Part shown: one piece after another, positions 2,339 through 63,072 of the stretch | Position numbering within the stretch: position 1 is the stretch's first letter | Layout: the number at the start of each line of letters is the position of its first letter | Source: Escherichia coli | Lineage (GTDB): Bacteria > Pseudomonadota > Gammaproteobacteria > Enterobacterales > Enterobacteriaceae | Assembly (NCBI RefSeq): GCF_048403405.1 | Contig: NZ_CP183129.1 | DNA: 64,000 nucleotides | Reading direction: 5' to 3' (one strand) | Notes under the pieces: generated by a model | Database searches by the model: none | What the model saw: the letters and a program-made list of their open reading frames with translations, nothing else | Told to the model about the DNA's origin: nothing | Position numbers and translations under genes: made by a program

Positions 2339-3511
2339 TTAGCGAACAGCGCGGATGGCGTTAATTAATCCAGCCACACCTTTTTCCAGTTTCGAACGCG
2401 GGCACCCGGCATTGAGACGGACAAAACCACGACCTTCTTCACCGTAGGTATACCCCGGCATGATCGCGACCTTCTCTTGCTCGATAAGCGCTTTTTGCAA
2501 CGCGTTGTCGTCAATATTCAACGGACGTAGATCAATCCAGGCCAGATAAGTGGATTGCGGGATCTGCCAGTTGAGTTCAGGGAACGCGGCGTTCATTTTA
2601 TCTGCGATATACGTCAGGTTATCTTTCAGATAGACGCGTAAGGCATCCAGCCACGGCGCGCCTTGCTGATAGGCGGCGATATGGGCAGTTAACGCCAGTA
2701 CTGAAGGGGAAGAAAGGCCATCACGTCCTTTCAGTGCCGATAAATAGGCATCACGGCTGCTGCTATTTTCTATAATCCCGTAAGCACCGGTCAGGGCGGG
2801 AATATTGAAACTTTTCGATCCCGACGTTAGCAATGCCCAGTCTCCGCGCGCCACATTACTCCAGGGAATATGCGGCTGCTCGCCCCAAACCATATCCATA
2901 TGGATTTCATCGGAAATAACCCGCACACCATGACGCTCGCACAGGTCAGCCATGATCTCCAGCTCATCGCACGTCCACACTTTCCCGGTAGGATTCTGTG
3001 GGCTACACAGGAGCATAATTTTACATTCTGGTTTCGCCAACACGGCTTCCAGCTTGCCCATATCGCAAAACCAGCCGTCAGCCTGCTTCTCTAAAGCAAC
3101 GGGCATTACTGTGCGCTGGTTACCTTCAATGGCCTTGTAAAATGCGTCATAGGCGGGTGTGTGGATCACCACGCCTTCACCTGTTTCAGACCACTGACGA
3201 ATCAGTTCTGAAACCATATAGATAACAGAAGGGCCATACACCACCGATTGCGTATCAATTGCGGTGTAATGCTGGGTGGAAAACCAGTGGGCAATAGCCG
3301 CGAGAAACTCATCGTTTTTCCAGCGGCTGTAGCCAAACACGCCGTGCATCAGGCGCTGATTCAGCGCCTCGATAATGCAGGGGGCAGTGGCAAAATCCAT
3401 GTCTGAAATCGTGAACGGTAACAGGTCAGCAGTGCCGAAACGGTCAGCGACATAATCCCACTGCGTACACCATGTGCCATGACGATCCACGACCTTTGAA
3501 AAATCGAACAT
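2339..3511 (-). CDS. malY: PLP-dependent cystathionine beta-lyase / maltose regulon modulator MalY
   Basis: 390-aa translation recognised as MalY (aminotransferase class I/II fold); immediately downstream of malX as in the malXY operon. Confidence 0.95.
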   Translation of the reverse strand: MFDFSKVVDRHGTWCTQWDYVADRFGTADLLPFTISDMDFATAPCIIEALNQRLMHGVFGYSRWKNDEFLAAIAHWFSTQHYTAIDTQSVVYGPSVIYMVSELIRQWSETGEGVVIHTPAYDAFYKAIEGNQRTVMPVALEKQADGWFCDMGKLEAVLAKPECKIMLLCSPQNPTGKVWTCDELEIMADLCERHGVRVISDEIHMDMVWGEQPHIPWSNVARGDWALLTSGSKSFNIPALTGAYGIIENSSSRDAYLSALKGRDGLSSPSVLALTAHIAAYQQGAPWLDALRVYLKDNLTYIADKMNAAFPELNWQIPQSTYLAWIDLRPLNIDDNALQKALIEQEKVAIMPGYTYGEEGRGFVRLNAGCPRSKLEKGVAGLINAIRAVR

Positions 3512-55782: not shown

Positions 55783-55974
55783 TTAAAGACCTGCCGGGAT
55801 TTCGATATTATCCTGGTGAATAACTTTATCGACCGGGTAACAGTTACCGGGAATTTTCTGTTCGGTTGCTGCAGTCATACACTCCTGCATTGTCCTGTGA
55901 ACACTGACTGCAATATCAACTGGCACTCCGGAAACAAGAAAAACTGTCAGAACAAGCGCAAATGCTGAATTCAT
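55783..55974 (-). CDS. ydfD: prophage lysis protein YdfD
   Basis: 63-aa protein MNSAFALVLTVFLVSGVPVDIAVSVHRTMQECMTAATEQKIPGNCYPVDKVIHQDNIEIPAGL, close to my memory of K-12 YdfD; N-terminal hydrophobic segment. Confidence 0.85.
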   Translation of the reverse strand: MNSAFALVLTVFLVSGVPVDIAVSVHRTMQECMTAATEQKIPGNCYPVDKVIHQDNIEIPAGL

Positions 55975-56159
55975 TGTGCACATCCTTTTGGCATCAGACG
56001 TAAACGAGCCAGCATTGAAACAATGCATATTTTATTTAATAGCTCCCGTTCTTGTTTTCTCTTGTTAATGGCATCTTCAGTAAATACAGGGTTACTGATA
56101 GTGACACCAATTTCAAAACAACCTTCAGACGTATTAACGTTTGGTAATAACGTTTTCAT
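55971..56159 (-). CDS. dicB: cell-division inhibitor DicB
   Basis: 62-aa protein MKTLLPNVNTSEGCFEIGVTISNPVFTEDAINKRKQERELLNKICIVSMLARLRLMPKGCAQ, matching my memory of DicB; 4-nt overlap with ydfD. Confidence 0.9.
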   Translation of the reverse strand: MKTLLPNVNTSEGCFEIGVTISNPVFTEDAINKRKQERELLNKICIVSMLARLRLMPKGCAQ

Positions 56160-56333: not shown

Positions 56334-56386
56334 CGGCGGCAGAGCAGTCACGGAGTAAAACTGATACCGCCAAACGTCACCAGAAA
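56334..56386 (-). ncRNA. dicF: DicF small regulatory RNA
   Basis: Minus-strand sequence TTTCTGGTGACGTTTGGCGGTATCAGTTTTACTCCGTGACTGCTCTGCCGCC matches my memory of the 53-nt DicF; the exact 3' end is not determinable from sequence. Confidence 0.85.
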
Positions 56387-56645: not shown

Positions 56646-57221
56646 TTAAGGATTCATTAAGCAATGTCGCAACCACCAATAAATCCGCTTAAGAACATGA
56701 AAATTGATTACTGGTATAAAGCGCTTACAGTTGTTGGCGCTGCGTTGTTTGTCTTTAATGGAACGTCTTTTTTTGACAGATATCCCGTTGTTCCATTGGG
56801 TTTTTTGTCCTCCGGCATCTTTTTTATTGGTTTGGGGGAGTGGATTAATCACCCTCTCAAAGTGAGATTTATTGGTCCTGGAGTTTGGACTCGTGGATAT
56901 AATCGTTCTTCGTGCGCACTCGGTATCATCTTCGACATACTTGGTTGTTTCCTGATTGTTACAGGAGTCGTCAAGTTCTTCTGATGTAAAACCGCAAATG
57001 GGGCACGTAACGGGAATTTTGAAAAGCGTTTCTCCGGGTTCCAGAACAAAATTTTCTGCGGTCTGATTTTGCTTCTCATATTTGTGCTCCGCGTCATTGT
57101 GAGAGCACATTCTTATTCTGAGTGCCTGTTTAAACTCACTGAAGCTGAGAGCTTCTTCGCCTTCGGCAAGGCCTTCGAAGTATTCTTCGTAAGCCTTTTC
57201 CATGATTGTGTCGAAATCCAT
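56646..57221 (-). CDS. hypothetical early-left protein (ydfB/ydfC region)
   Basis: Start MDFDTIMEKAYEEYFEGL at 57221 with AGGTGAG RBS, 1 nt after the ydfA stop; contains a CPxC knuckle (PVTCPICGF). The C-terminal two-thirds is low-complexity N/K/R-rich and overlaps the plus-strand ORF, so the true 3' end is uncertain. Confidence 0.45.
   Translation of the reverse strand: MDFDTIMEKAYEEYFEGLAEGEEALSFSEFKQALRIRMCSHNDAEHKYEKQNQTAENFVLEPGETLFKIPVTCPICGFTSEELDDSCNNQETTKYVEDDTECARRTIISTSPNSRTNKSHFERVINPLPQTNKKDAGGQKTQWNNGISVKKRRSIKDKQRSANNCKRFIPVINFHVLKRIYWWLRHCLMNP
56664..56984 (+). CDS. candidate 106-aa three-helix membrane protein, antisense to the early-left operon
   Basis: ORF with three hydrophobic segments and basic residues in the loops, AAGGA about 11 nt upstream of the ATG, G-rich first codon positions. 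It is exactly codon-antisense to the 3' part of the minus-strand ORF 56646..57221, so only one of the two is likely to be real. Confidence 0.4.
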   Translation: MSQPPINPLKNMKIDYWYKALTVVGAALFVFNGTSFFDRYPVVPLGFLSSGIFFIGLGEWINHPLKVRFIGPGVWTRGYNRSSCALGIIFDILGCFLIVTGVVKFF

Positions 57222-57222
57222 A

Positions 57223-57378
57223 TCACTCACCTGAGTTTCTTTCCAGCCAGCGACGGGCACCATTTTCGGTTTTAAACGTTTTGCTTTTGGTATACGTCAT
57301 CGCGGTGAACGTGCCGTCCTGGTTGGGGAACACGCCACATACCAGAGATTCGCTGTTGCCAAGATCGATAGTATCCAT
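57223..57378 (-). CDS. ydfA: small prophage protein YdfA
   Basis: 51-aa protein MDTIDLGNSESLVCGVFPNQDGTFTAMTYTKSKTFKTENGARRWLERNSGE, matching my memory of K-12 YdfA; first gene after the left operator. Confidence 0.8.
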   Translation of the reverse strand: MDTIDLGNSESLVCGVFPNQDGTFTAMTYTKSKTFKTENGARRWLERNSGE

Positions 57379-57491
57379 GCTGACCTCATTTCCCCTTAAC
57401 GCCGGGGTCGCGGAACTGTTTGCTGAGAACACCGTGCGGTGTCTTGATGGAAAGTAATTTAGAATAACCTAACATGAGAGGCAAGTGTTTT

Positions 57492-57511
57492 TTGTTAGAT
57501 TGATCTAACAA
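57492..57511. promoter_or_regulatory. palindromic operator (GTTAGA-N4-TCTAAC) between dicA and ydfA (early-left promoter region)
   Basis: Seen in sequence: TTGTTAGAT-TG-ATCTAACAA, perfect 9-bp half-sites; same half-site as the operator in the dicA-dicC intergenic region. Confidence 0.65.
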
Positions 57512-57546
57512 AAAGAGTGGGCGCAACTAATCACTTGAAAAGAATG

Positions 57547-57954
57547 TTATTTTATTGATTTATTTTTACGCGCTTTAAGCATTTCTTCGAAGAGTTTGTT
57601 GAAGTTTTCTACTCTTGCGCGCATTTCAGACAGCAAGGCTTCCTGCTCGGAAGATGGAAGAGCATCGAATAATTCGATCAATTCTTTGTGGTTGGGAGTT
57701 AGCTCTGTTTCCACATGAAGTTCTTGTGCAGGCACTGGTGCCTTGTCTTCGTCACCAAACATTAGCCATGTAGGTGAGCACTTCAGAGCATCCGCTAAAG
57801 CAAACAATCGTTTTCCGACTGGCTGGGTTTCGTCTCTTTCCCATTGTGAAATTGTGACGTGAGCAACTCCAGCGAGGCGCGCAGCTTCTCGTTGTGTTAA
57901 GCGTAATTCTTTTCGTCGCGCCAGAACTCGCTGGCCTAGGGTTCTTGTATCCAT
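57547..57954 (-). CDS. dicA: DicA-like HTH_XRE immunity repressor (cI functional analogue)
   Basis: 135-aa protein with XRE-type HTH (LRLTQREAARLAGVAHVTISQWERDE); similar to, but clearly diverged from, my remembered K-12 DicA; divergent from the Cro-like gene. Confidence 0.85.
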   Translation of the reverse strand: MDTRTLGQRVLARRKELRLTQREAARLAGVAHVTISQWERDETQPVGKRLFALADALKCSPTWLMFGDEDKAPVPAQELHVETELTPNHKELIELFDALPSSEQEALLSEMRARVENFNKLFEEMLKARKNKSIK

Positions 57955-57976
57955 AGTTAGGTAATTCTAATTTTTC

Positions 57977-58020
57977 TTGACTTAGGTATCCCGCGCACAA
58001 TAATGTTAGAAAAGTCTAAC
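57977..58020 (+). promoter_or_regulatory. dicC-type promoter with overlapping palindromic operator
   Basis: TTGACT (57977..57982), about 18-bp spacer, TAATGT (58001..58006), overlapped by the palindrome GTTAGA-AAAG-TCTAAC (58005..58020); GGGGG RBS before the dicC-like start. Confidence 0.6.
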
Positions 58021-58031
58021 AAGAGGGGGCT

Positions 58032-58262
58032 TTGATGCTTAAAGTTGACGCAATTACTTTTTTTGGCAGCAAAACAAAGCTTGCCAATGCCGCAGGAGTG
58101 AGACTGGCAAGTGTTGCTGCTTGGGGGATACTGGTTCCTGAAGGTCGCGCGATGCGTCTACAGGAGGCATCTGGCGGGGAGCTTCAGTATGATCCCAAAG
58201 TTTATGACGAATATCGTAAGACGAAGCGGGCGGGGCGGTTGAACAATGAAAATCACTCCTGA
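58032..58262 (+). CDS. dicC: DicC-like Cro-type repressor
   Basis: 76-aa protein; its C-terminal half (EGRAMRLQEASGGELQYDPKVYDEYRKTKRAGRLNNENHS) matches my memory of DicC. Confidence 0.85.
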   Translation: MMLKVDAITFFGSKTKLANAAGVRLASVAAWGILVPEGRAMRLQEASGGELQYDPKVYDEYRKTKRAGRLNNENHS

Positions 58263-58767
58263 ACAGGCTCGTGAGGCTCTGGATGCCTGGATATGTCGAC
58301 CAGGAATGACACAGGAGCAGGCGACGATATTAATCACTGAAGCATTCTGGGCTTTGAAAGAGCGCCCGAACATCGATGTTCAGCGTGTCACATATGAAGG
58401 TGGCGCGGTTGATCAGCGAGCGCTTAGCGTTAATCGAGTGAAGATATTCGAACGCTGGAAGGCTATCGACACCAGGGATAAGCGTGAAAAGTTCACAGCG
58501 CTAGTGCCTGCAATTATGGAGGCTATCCGGATTAGTGATTTCAGGTTGTATCGTGAGATCAGTGATGGAAAAAGTATTACGTACATGATCGCCGGGTTAA
58601 ATAAAGAATATGGCGATGTGGTGGAATCCGGACTGCTTTTTGCAGATCCTGCCGTTGTAGATCGTGAAACTGACGAACTTATAGAAAAAGCAATTGCTTT
58701 CAAGCTTGCGTATCGACAGCAATACCAACAAAAAGCTGGATGGAATTATGAGTCTTCTTTTTGCTGA
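58246..58767 (+). CDS. hypothetical protein in the cII-equivalent position (possibly YdaT-like)
   Basis: 173-aa ORF overlapping the dicC-like 3' end by 17 nt; the YdaT/cII-analogue assignment is by position only. Confidence 0.4.
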   Translation: MKITPEQAREALDAWICRPGMTQEQATILITEAFWALKERPNIDVQRVTYEGGAVDQRALSVNRVKIFERWKAIDTRDKREKFTALVPAIMEAIRISDFRLYREISDGKSITYMIAGLNKEYGDVVESGLLFADPAVVDRETDELIEKAIAFKLAYRQQYQQKAGWNYESSFC

Positions 58768-60688: not shown

Positions 60689-61714
60689 ATGCACATTTTA
60701 TCTGTTTCAAAAAAGGAAGTTGGAAGAGCTGGGGATAGATTAGTTTCTCAGTTTGGTACAGGTGAAAAATATAAAGAGGAAGATGTACAAATTCTTCATG
60801 AGTGGAGGATGTTGCATTTATATCCTTTAAGTAAAATACAATTTTATATGGAAAGAGAGGCTATTTCCTTAAACAAAAATGCGTTACTATCCTCTAGAAT
60901 TAAGAGGATGCCTTCCATTGTTACTAAGCTTTCTAGATTTCCTGATATGAAGTTAAATAAGATGCAGGATCTTGGTGGGTGCCGGGCTATTTTAAATAAT
61001 CTGGATCAAGTGTATGATTTAGTTAATAAAATAAAATCATCTAAATTCTCACATGAACTAGTTAGAATGGATGATTACATGATAGACGTGAAAGATTCTG
61101 GTTATAGAAGCTTTCATATGGTCTATTCATTCCAAAATAAAAAATTTCCATCTTTAAATGGGTTGCGCATTGAAATGCAAATAAGAACAGCTATTCAACA
61201 TAGCTGGGCTACAGCAGTTGAAATGGTTGGTTTGTTTCGAAAGGAATCATTGAAATCTGGTTTTGGTGATGCAAGATGGCTTAGGTTTTTTGAATTGGTA
61301 TCAGAGCTTTTTTATAAACTTGAGTATGAAAAAGAACCATCTGGGAGTTATATAAAAATATCAGAAGAATTAAGTTATTTATCCGTCGAGTTGAATGTTT
61401 TCGATATATTAGCTGCTTACAATGCCGTAGTTAGCCATATTGAGGGTAGCAAAAAATATGATAAAGGACTTTGCATAATTGTTGTTGATACCATAAAGCG
61501 GAATATAAATATAAAGAGCTTCGAAAATCACAATCATGCGAAGGCGGCAGAAGCTTATGTCGAGTCTGAAAAATACTGCGCGGAAAATAAAGGCTGTGAA
61601 GTGGCTATGGTTTCTGTTAGTTCAATTAGTGAATTAAAAAATGCATATCCTGCTTACTTTTTAGATACGAAAACTTTTTTAAATTATCTCAGTAGGTATG
61701 TTTTTATAAAATAA
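60689..61714 (+). CDS. RelA/SpoT-domain nucleotide pyrophosphokinase (toxSAS-like; candidate fused CapRel-type toxin-antitoxin defence protein)
   Basis: 341-aa protein with the four synthetase motifs in order: RIKRMPSIVTK, DLGGCRAIL, YRSFHMVY, EMQIRTAIQHSWATAVE. No HD hydrolase, TGS or ACT domains; about 130 C-terminal residues unassigned. The gene is markedly AT-rich compared with its flanks. Confidence 0.8.
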   Translation: MHILSVSKKEVGRAGDRLVSQFGTGEKYKEEDVQILHEWRMLHLYPLSKIQFYMEREAISLNKNALLSSRIKRMPSIVTKLSRFPDMKLNKMQDLGGCRAILNNLDQVYDLVNKIKSSKFSHELVRMDDYMIDVKDSGYRSFHMVYSFQNKKFPSLNGLRIEMQIRTAIQHSWATAVEMVGLFRKESLKSGFGDARWLRFFELVSELFYKLEYEKEPSGSYIKISEELSYLSVELNVFDILAAYNAVVSHIEGSKKYDKGLCIIVVDTIKRNINIKSFENHNHAKAAEAYVESEKYCAENKGCEVAMVSVSSISELKNAYPAYFLDTKTFLNYLSRYVFIK

Positions 61715-62448
61715 AAAATGTTATCTGGAGTGGTCTGAATTCTACTAACTTAGTTTTTTCAGACCGCTTCTGACCACAATGGCCTGTGAGGTTCTGCTGC
61801 TAGTCAACATAAAATAACAAAGCCGGCAGGTGGTGGTTGTTGTAAAGTTATTCAATGACATTCATGGAGGCTTAAGCGAATTATTTGTCCCTGGTCGGTA
61901 TGGTGGCAACAGCTTGTTGCGAGAATTTGGCTAATTTGGACTGACTTCCGCTCCTTGCTCAAAGCGGACTAGAAGGTTAGCTTGTGTCGGACTTTGCGTA
62001 TTAAAAGAAGTGCTGGTGGTGACTAGTGGTTGAGCCCCATTTCCACAGAAAAAATCAGAGAAACTATACCCAATAGTTGTATTGAATCACTGACGAGACA
62101 GCCTCATATTCATCAGGACTGGTGTACGTCCAATACAGGAGGTTGTGGTGCTGGTTCTCAAATGTGCGCTGGCTATTACGGCTGTAATGGCGATTTATTG
62201 TCTTGCTATTGTTCTTATGGATCGCCTTTCTGACTGATTTCATATTGGCGAGGTAAAGGTAGTTAAGTAGAATGGCTGCGGGTGCTTGAGGCTATCTGCC
62301 TCGGGCATGAACACCAAAGGCAGATAGAGAAAAGCCCCAGTTAACATTACGCGTCCTGCAAGACGCTTAACATTAATCTGAGGCCAATTTCATGCTAGAC
62401 ACATGTAGGTTAGCCTCTTACGTGCCGGAAGGCAAGGAGAAGCAGGCT

Positions 62449-62604
62449 ATGAAGCAGCAAAAGGCGATGTTAATCGCCCTGATCGTCATCTGTTTAACCG
62501 TCATAGTGACGGCACTGGTAACGAGGAAAGACCTCTGCGAGGTACGAATCCGAACCGGCCAGACGGAGGTCGCTGTCTTCACAGCTTACGAACCTGAGGA
62601 GTAA
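62449..62604 (+). CDS. hokD: Hok/Gef-family membrane toxin
   Basis: 51-aa protein MKQQKAMLIALIVICLTVIVTALVTRKDLCEVRIRTGQTEVAVFTAYEPEE, matching my memory of HokD; AAGGAGA RBS; upstream fold-back elements typical of hok mRNAs. No relB/relE ORFs are present upstream. Confidence 0.9.
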   Translation: MKQQKAMLIALIVICLTVIVTALVTRKDLCEVRIRTGQTEVAVFTAYEPEE

Positions 62605-62820: not shown

Positions 62821-63072
62821 ATGATGAACATCGAAGAACTGCGTAAAATTTTTTGTGAAGATGGCCTCTATGCTGTGTGCGTTGAAAATGGAAATCTTGT
62901 TAGTCATTACCGCATTATGTGTTTGCGAAAGAATGGGGCTGCGTTAATTAATTTTGTGGATGGTCGAGTGACAGACGGATTTATCTTGCGCGAAGGTGAG
63001 TTTGTCACTTCATTACAGGCACTGAAAGAGATCGGAATAAAAGCAGGCTTTTCAGCTTTTGCAGAAGAATAA
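62821..63072 (+). CDS. rem: Qin prophage protein Rem
   Basis: 83-aa protein MMNIEELRKIFCEDGLYAVCVENG..., matching my memory of K-12 Rem; downstream of hokD as in K-12. Confidence 0.8.
   Translation: MMNIEELRKIFCEDGLYAVCVENGNLVSHYRIMCLRKNGAALINFVDGRVTDGFILREGEFVTSLQALKEIGIKAGFSAFAEE

Follow-up and report, generated by a model that had tools for sequence, protein, structure and literature searches.

Two copies of an inverted repeat flank the gene of a DicA-like repressor in the 64,000 nucleotides of Escherichia coli DNA analyzed here (referred to as the window), one of them downstream of the repressor gene and the other in front of a divergently oriented cro-like gene. This raises the question of whether these repeats are the operators of a single repressor that controls both promoters, and whether they define the immunity specificity of the prophage, as proposed in a first-pass annotation made from the letters alone.

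The repressor gene (57547..57954, minus strand) encodes a protein of 135 amino acids with a Pfam HTH_3 domain, which is homologous over its full length to DicA of strain K-12 (57% identity over 132 aa, E = 4e-55). Its residues 1 to 68 align without gaps to the N-terminal domain of the P22 c2 repressor (PDB 1adr and 2r1j, E = 1e-18). All Pfam matches of the 135-aa protein were to helix-turn-helix families, and a C-terminal domain for SOS cleavage was not among them. Transcribed divergently is the cro-like gene (58035..58262, plus strand; Pfam P22_Cro), the product of which is 86% identical to K-12 DicC; a gene for a YdaT-family protein is located at 58246..58767. Directly downstream of the repressor gene and on the same strand are ydfA (57223..57378, minus strand; Pfam DUF1391, annotated as ydfA in near-identical genomes), the small RNA DicF (56334..56385, minus strand; Rfam RF00039, 72.5 bits compared to a gathering score of 48), dicB (55971..56159, minus strand; mapped from the 99.9% identical locus L001), and ydfD, which is annotated in a 99.9% identical locus. 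The first gene of this repressed left operon is ydfA, DicF lies within it, and the cell division inhibitor DicB is its toxic cargo. The identities originally given to the repressor, the cro-like gene, and ydfA were confirmed by these matches.

The annotations of near-identical genomes include dicB, ydfD, and genes for an exonuclease, an excisionase, and an integrase adjacent to rspB, and a rem gene is present in the window at 62821..63072 (plus strand), with a product 96% identical to K-12 Rem. The integration site and the gene order dicC, dicA, ydfA, dicF, dicB, ydfD, plus rem, are like those of K-12 Qin. Judged by this gene content, the locus is the Qin-type immunity region of a prophage at the Qin attachment site, by rspB. 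At locus L089 of strain A0 34/86, a relative with 99.8% identity, the prophage is of full length (about 45 kb) and includes head, tail, and lysis genes plus rem; going by this similarity, the window prophage belongs to a still full-length lineage.

Other features of the prophage were also recorded. The early-right region contains a gene for a 341-aa protein with a RelA/SpoT domain (60689..61714, plus strand; Pfam RelA_SpoT). Along its full length, this protein matches PDC-S33, a candidate defence family of PADLOC (E = 5e-119); the prophage may thereby carry an anti-phage gene of the alarmone or toxSAS type. The sok antitoxin RNA was found at 62280..62454 (plus strand; Rfam RF01794, 117 bits), and hokD is annotated downstream of the sok-equivalent position in a near-identical relative, as in K-12 Qin. 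An unannotated open reading frame for 106 aa (56664..56984, plus strand), opposite to the strand of the dicBF operon and between DicF and a truncated ydfB, replaces the ydfC region of K-12. Its product looks hydrophobic and may be a membrane protein; it had no match in Pfam or PADLOC.

How exceptional the repeats are was evaluated by scanning the complete 64-kb window. The exact pattern GTTAGANNNNTCTAAC, which is the GTTAGA-N4-TCTAAC palindrome already noticed on both sides of the repressor gene, matched only at 57494..57509 (GTTAGATTGATCTAAC) and at 58005..58020 (GTTAGAAAAGTCTAAC). All of 100 dinucleotide-preserving shuffles were free of an exact match, so that zero matches were expected and two were observed. 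The left copy is part of a perfect 20-bp palindrome at 57492..57511, TTGTTAGA-TTGA-TCTAACAA (as a whole, TTGTTAGATTGATCTAACAA), and it does lie between the stop of the repressor gene (57547) and the start of ydfA (57378), as had been noted. On the right side, the palindrome is perfect across 58004..58021, and its 20-mer at 58003..58022 is ATGTTAGAAAAGTCTAACAA. Left and right operators are 511 bp apart. From these sequences, the functional unit is the 20-mer TTGTTAG-N6-CTAACAA.

A motif scan for further copies, which had been suggested as a check of the first-pass annotation, gave no exact copy beyond these two but revealed two imperfect partners, each adjoining a perfect copy. With up to two mismatches allowed, just two extra sites appeared in the 64 kb, 57458..57473 (TTTAGAATAACCTAAC) and 57956..57971 (GTTAGGTAATTCTAAT), at a center-to-center distance from the neighboring perfect copy of 36 bp on the left and 49 bp on the right side. 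The expectation for the whole window at this threshold was 1.28 matches, which corresponds to an estimate of about 0.005 chance matches within 60 bp of a perfect site. When the 49.9 kb of the relative L089 were scanned, the same two sites alone had no more than 3 mismatches in 14 positions, with an expectation of 0.175 at up to two mismatches. An 18-mer pattern with up to three mismatches yielded 20 matches in the window compared to 20.4 expected ones, which is the chance level and uninformative concerning further copies. Remote operators, for instance near rem, were found neither in the window nor in the full-length relative L089. Each side carries one perfect and one imperfect site, so that a weaker partner is found at each promoter. 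No credible middle operator was present in the class of alleles to which the window belongs, and a clear tripartite operator was not seen.

The position of the right operator relative to the promoter of the cro-like gene dicC indicates how repression might work. The sole sigma-70-like promoter called in this region by a promoter scan is at 57977..58004 on the plus strand, with a −35 site TTGACT (57977..57982), a 16-bp spacer, and a −10 site AATAAT (57999..58004), which agree with the consensus in 10 of 12 positions. The second palindrome had been described as overlapping this −10 site, which is correct for the 20-mer, since it covers the last two bases of the hexamer, but not for the 16-bp core, which starts just past the hexamer and only abuts it. 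If transcription starts 7 nt past the −10 site, as assumed here, the operator would extend from about −8 to +12 of the promoter, and a bound repressor is therefore proposed to block RNA polymerase.

This site is the equivalent of the operator Oc of K-12, an inverted repeat of 20 nt between dicA and dicC with the sequence TTGTTAGTCATAACTAACAA (Yun et al. 2012, PMC3441716). Both contain TTGTTAG-N6-CTAACAA, located at −69 from the ATG of the repressor gene in K-12 and at −68 in the window, and the dicC promoter of K-12 (TTGACT-17-TATCTT, then GTTAG) is homologous to that of the window (TTGACT-16-AATAAT, then GTTAG). The differences are in the central 6 bp of the operator and in the repressor itself, which shares only the 57% of its residues mentioned above. 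DicA of K-12 binds Oc in vivo and no longer does so after a single A-to-C exchange in the core (CTAACAA to CTCACAA); bound to Oc, it represses dicC and activates dicA (PMC3441716). By analogy to K-12, the repressor on the right operator of the window may also stimulate its own weak divergent promoter.

Instead of being repressor operators, the palindromes could be sites for the cro-like DicC only, with the DicA-like repressor acting elsewhere or indirectly. Against this assumption stands the in vivo binding of K-12 DicA to Oc, which depended on dicA and on the operator sequence. Repressor and Cro share their operators in P22 and lambda, so that binding of DicC would leave binding of DicA possible. 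The paper on the O157 DicC contains no binding data.

The imperfect partner site on the right side, 57954..57973 (TAGTTAGGTAATTCTAATTT), adjoins the start codon of the repressor gene and resembles the site Oa of K-12. It contains the sequence TAGAAT (57964..57969, minus strand), which ends 9 nt upstream of the ATG and could be the −10 site of a weak repressor promoter. K-12 has TAGCAT at the equivalent place, and the dicA promoter was not obvious from the sequence according to Yun et al. (PMC3441716). No Shine-Dalgarno sequence is visible before the repressor ATG (57952..57973, minus strand), and the repressor mRNA may be nearly leaderless, like that of lambda cI starting from PRM; by the same analogy, the Oa-like site could act like OR3 of lambda. 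It is conserved across the repressor classes described below without following their class-specific base, so its role may be that of a DicC site, or it may be no more than promoter sequence. The K-12 sites Oa and Om, which had been defined by sequence alone, showed no binding of DicA in vivo (PMC3441716), and the two imperfect sites of the window may for this reason not act as repressor sites by themselves.

On the left side, the promoter of the ydfA-DicF-dicB operon was read by eye. Its inferred −35 site, TTGCCT (57479..57484, minus strand), and its inferred −10 site, TAAATT (57456..57461, minus strand), are separated by 17 bp and match the consensus at 8 of 12 positions, which is below the threshold of the promoter scan, so this promoter was not called. 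Both hexamers are collinear with those of dicBp of K-12: the window reads TTGCCT, then ctcATGTTAGgttattC, then TAAATT, and K-12 reads TTGACC, then gatATGTTAGtcatggC, then TAATCT. This alignment used the rows of the window, K-12, and L007 only, with the O157 and PPompW rows excluded. Transcription is predicted to start near 57449 for ydfA, near 58011 for the cro-like gene, and near 57957 for the repressor gene.

The imperfect left core operator (57456..57475), ATGTTAG-gttatt-CTAAATT in the orientation of the repressor gene, is located between the hexamers and has its right half over the inferred −10 site, and this overlap is plausibly the reason why the right half departs from CTAACAA. Its left half carries the class-specific base, TGTTAG in the window and TCTTAG in the SQA alleles described below, and its distance to the distal site is 35 to 36 bp in every class. 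The left distal operator, the perfect palindrome at 57492..57511, is found 7 bp upstream of the inferred −35 site, at about −62 to −43 of the inferred promoter. That the perfect site is upstream of the −35 site and not over the core promoter counts against the operator reading preferred here. The same position is occupied by TTGTTAG-n6-CTAACAA with eight different centers in loci of the window class, while one half is degenerate in K-12 (CATACAA), where the window has a perfect palindrome. The spacing of 36 bp between the two left sites corresponds to about 3.4 helical turns, which does not favor simple side-by-side cooperativity. In the proposed mechanism, the perfect distal operator would work with the weaker site at 57456..57475 over the −10 site, and both together would silence the toxic dicBF operon. 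In K-12, DicA strongly represses dicBp, and Rem relieves this repression (PMC10448788).

The left distal palindrome is located 36 bp downstream of the stop codon of the repressor gene, and its RNA folds as an 11-bp hairpin (−9.6 kcal/mol, z-score −6.2), which would agree with a terminator or processing signal of the repressor transcript, that is, an RNA or DNA hairpin and not a protein site. The stem is nevertheless A/U-rich with only 2 G-C pairs, it is followed by an A run and not by a U tract, on both strands, and a terminator scan called nothing at 57492..57511. Homologues keep the half-site sequence and show no compensatory changes that would maintain the pairing. The homologous left sites of K-12 (ATGTTAG...CATACAA) and of SQA alleles (AGCTTAG...CTACACA) are not palindromes at all, indicating that the sequence is conserved and not the pairing. 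Moreover, the identical half-site recurs at the cro-like promoter. The A/U-rich stem, the missing 3' U tract, the negative terminator scan, and the non-palindromic homologues led to the rejection of the hairpin, which is an extremely improbable explanation of this site.

Whether the same repressor may read both sites was evaluated with 160 related loci obtained from IMG/VR by two scans, plus the reference loci. Across these approximately 160 loci, the half-sites are conserved and the central 6 bp drift. Every allele with the residues T-Q-R at positions 20 to 22 of the repressor, which is the class of the window, has TTGTTAG-n6-CTAACA at −68 or −69 from the repressor ATG, plus one or two further copies past the stop codon of the repressor gene; the distance of −68 or −69 was fixed in all alleles surveyed. 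Between the T-Q-R alleles, which have 30 different N-terminal domains with identities to the window protein as low as 54%, the central 6 bp vary freely (for example, actttt, atattc, gtatgt, tcataa, or ccatgg). In 24 distinct TQR upstream regions, the information content was 1.83 bits for the half-sites, 1.03 bits for the central 6 bp, and 0.90 and 1.39 bits for the flanks.

Position 3 of the half-site, counted at the Oc position, changed together with the repressor allele. Alleles with T-Q-R at residues 20 to 22 and (A or S)-H at residues 31 to 32 have TTGTTAG-n6-CTAACAA, with a G at position 3 in 117 of 118 half-sites. Those with S-Q-A and A-H, the type of O157 and PPompW, have (C/T)CCTTAG-n6-CTAAGGA, with a C in 8 of 8 half-sites, and those with T-Q-K and S-D have (A/T)AATTAG-n6-CTAATA(A/C), with an A in 6 of 6 half-sites. 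On the left side, the operators of each class show the same dependence, and in SQA alleles their left half carries the class base C (TCTTAG or ACTTAG). Many SQA loci encode a cro-like protein with the same helix-turn-helix, GSKTKLANAAGVRLASVAAW, as that of the window class; the class-specific base thus tracks the repressor and not Cro, and DicC was rejected as the reader of this base. This co-variation of position 3 with the N-terminal domain of the repressor, at an unchanged DicC helix-turn-helix, is a further argument against palindromes that serve DicC only, which are, all points taken together, very unlikely. A single repressor specificity for both promoters, as deduced originally from the identical half-sites, is on the other hand supported by the match to the K-12 Oc, the conservation of the half-sites, and the co-variation of position 3.

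The window class shares the 33 bp next to the repressor ATG (57955..57987, including the −35 site TTGACT of the cro-like promoter) without any difference with the O157/PPompW (SQA) class, L004, L006, and L008, and the remainder of the intergenic region, including the Oc-like part, is class-specific. This indicates a recombination or mosaic junction inside the intergenic region, and the palindromes might be remnants of such junctions without a regulatory role. Alternatively, they may serve mainly a host factor such as YjdC (DicD), which was enriched at the dic locus of K-12 in ChIP-qPCR (PMC9283627). The shared mosaic segment, however, excludes the class-specific Oc-like site, the half-sites are conserved against drifting flanks, and a host factor would not explain operators that change with the repressor allele of the prophage. 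A host factor site or a junction remnant is thus very unlikely, even more so than sites used by DicC only, and the repressor remains the preferred reader of the palindromes.

The N-terminal domains of the TQR and SQA repressors are separated by residues 6, 8, 20, 22, 23, and 25, and it may be guessed that Arg22 reads operator position 3. In P22, the c2 repressor (R-Q-A, Asn32) has a T at the contacted position equivalent to position 3. The SQA and TQK classes comprise three distinct N-terminal domains each, so that the co-variation rests on few independent events. It is a tentative proposal, with somewhat more to doubt than to rely on, that a single base pair of the operator divides the DicA-family repressors into at least three groups that are hetero-immune to each other. 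These would be a G group with T20-Q21-R22 and His32, a C group with S-Q-A and His32, and an A group with T-Q-K and Asp32.

A repressor with another arrangement of repeats was found in the Cronobacter phage phiES15 (L005, repressor gene 2501..2905). It is 52% identical, has TQQ/SS at the respective residues, and was excluded from the class comparison. The flanks of its gene contain no TTAG-N6-CTAA site. Inspected by eye, they contain oppositely arranged repeats, with CTAAC-TTTT-GTTAG located downstream of the repressor gene and CTAAC-TAAT-GTTAT upstream of it, which points to an unchanged half-site read by a dimer of different geometry.

Taken together, the two palindromes very probably serve a Qin-type DicA/DicC immunity switch as its high-affinity operators, and we infer that the window allele of the repressor binds them. 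A dimer would read the 7-bp half-sites TTGTTAG and CTAACAA with its N-terminal helix-turn-helix, and the 6 bp between them would probably not be contacted. DicC probably uses the same sites as the repressor, binding their shared TTAG...CTAA core plus the weak site at the repressor start, which would give a two-state switch.

Among the known systems closest to this switch is P22 c2/Cro: the N-terminal domain of the repressor is homologous, the cro-like proteins belong to the same Pfam family, P22_Cro, and the operators of P22 are also palindromic with conserved outer contacted bases and a variable center, with position 3 as a specificity position. The P22 repressor contacts operator positions 2 to 7 but not the central 4 bp, and it loses specific binding when the T at position 3 is replaced by C (PMC4267663). 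The P22 operator is shorter, 18 bp with a 4-bp center (ATTTAAG-N4-CTTAAAT) compared to 20 bp with a 6-bp center in the window, and P22 c2 is longer, with 216 aa compared to 135 aa. Compared to lambda CI/Cro, the repressor and cro genes are likewise divergent, and the operators occupy promoters that resemble PR and PL. On the right side, the start of cro is covered by the strongest site, and a weak site is at the position of OR3, over the repressor promoter or start. The differences are a lack of sequence homology to CI, one strong and one weak site per side in place of the three graded sites of lambda, and a distance of only 511 bp between the left and right operators.

P22 c2 loses its activity when RecA mediates the cleavage of an alanyl-glycyl bond, a site that K-12 DicA is reported to lack (PMC10448788). 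In this respect, the switch is like the Gifsy GfoR/GfhR type, with a short repressor without a RecA cleavage site that is relieved by a small antirepressor. Rem is the K-12 example of this antirepressor-controlled type, and with its 96% identical copy in the window, release of the switch probably occurs via Rem and not by RecA-stimulated cleavage of the repressor. The text of the Lally 2025 compendium does not mention DicA or DicC. The Rem proteins are 96% identical although their putative target repressors share only 57% identity. If Rem acts directly, the repressor surface that it targets must belong to the conserved residues, perhaps those of the C-terminal segment LF(D/N)ALP...NFNKLFEE.

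Concerning the immunity of the prophage, the palindromes almost certainly are the operator pair of its switch, but the specificity, being that of DicA of K-12 Qin, is common to both prophages and not private to that of the window. The switch has already been described for K-12 Qin, and the window contains an ordinary, correctly read immunity switch. New are the exact 20-bp unit, the two partner sites, the geometry of the promoters, and the position 3 that sorts the alleles into at least three groups. There is little new biology in this, yet a still-complete Qin-type prophage is wired like the switch of the cryptic Qin prophage of K-12 over the toxic dicB/DicF division inhibitors. Its practical value is a precise operator map for the window allele and a predicted cross-immunity with K-12 DicA. 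The link between position 3 and the repressor allele could be used to sort the Qin-like prophages of E. coli genomes into immunity groups. If this holds true, the window prophage would share the G group with K-12 Qin although the repressors are only 57% identical, and co-resident or incoming Qin-type phages of the G group would cross-repress each other's dicBF and cro promoters.
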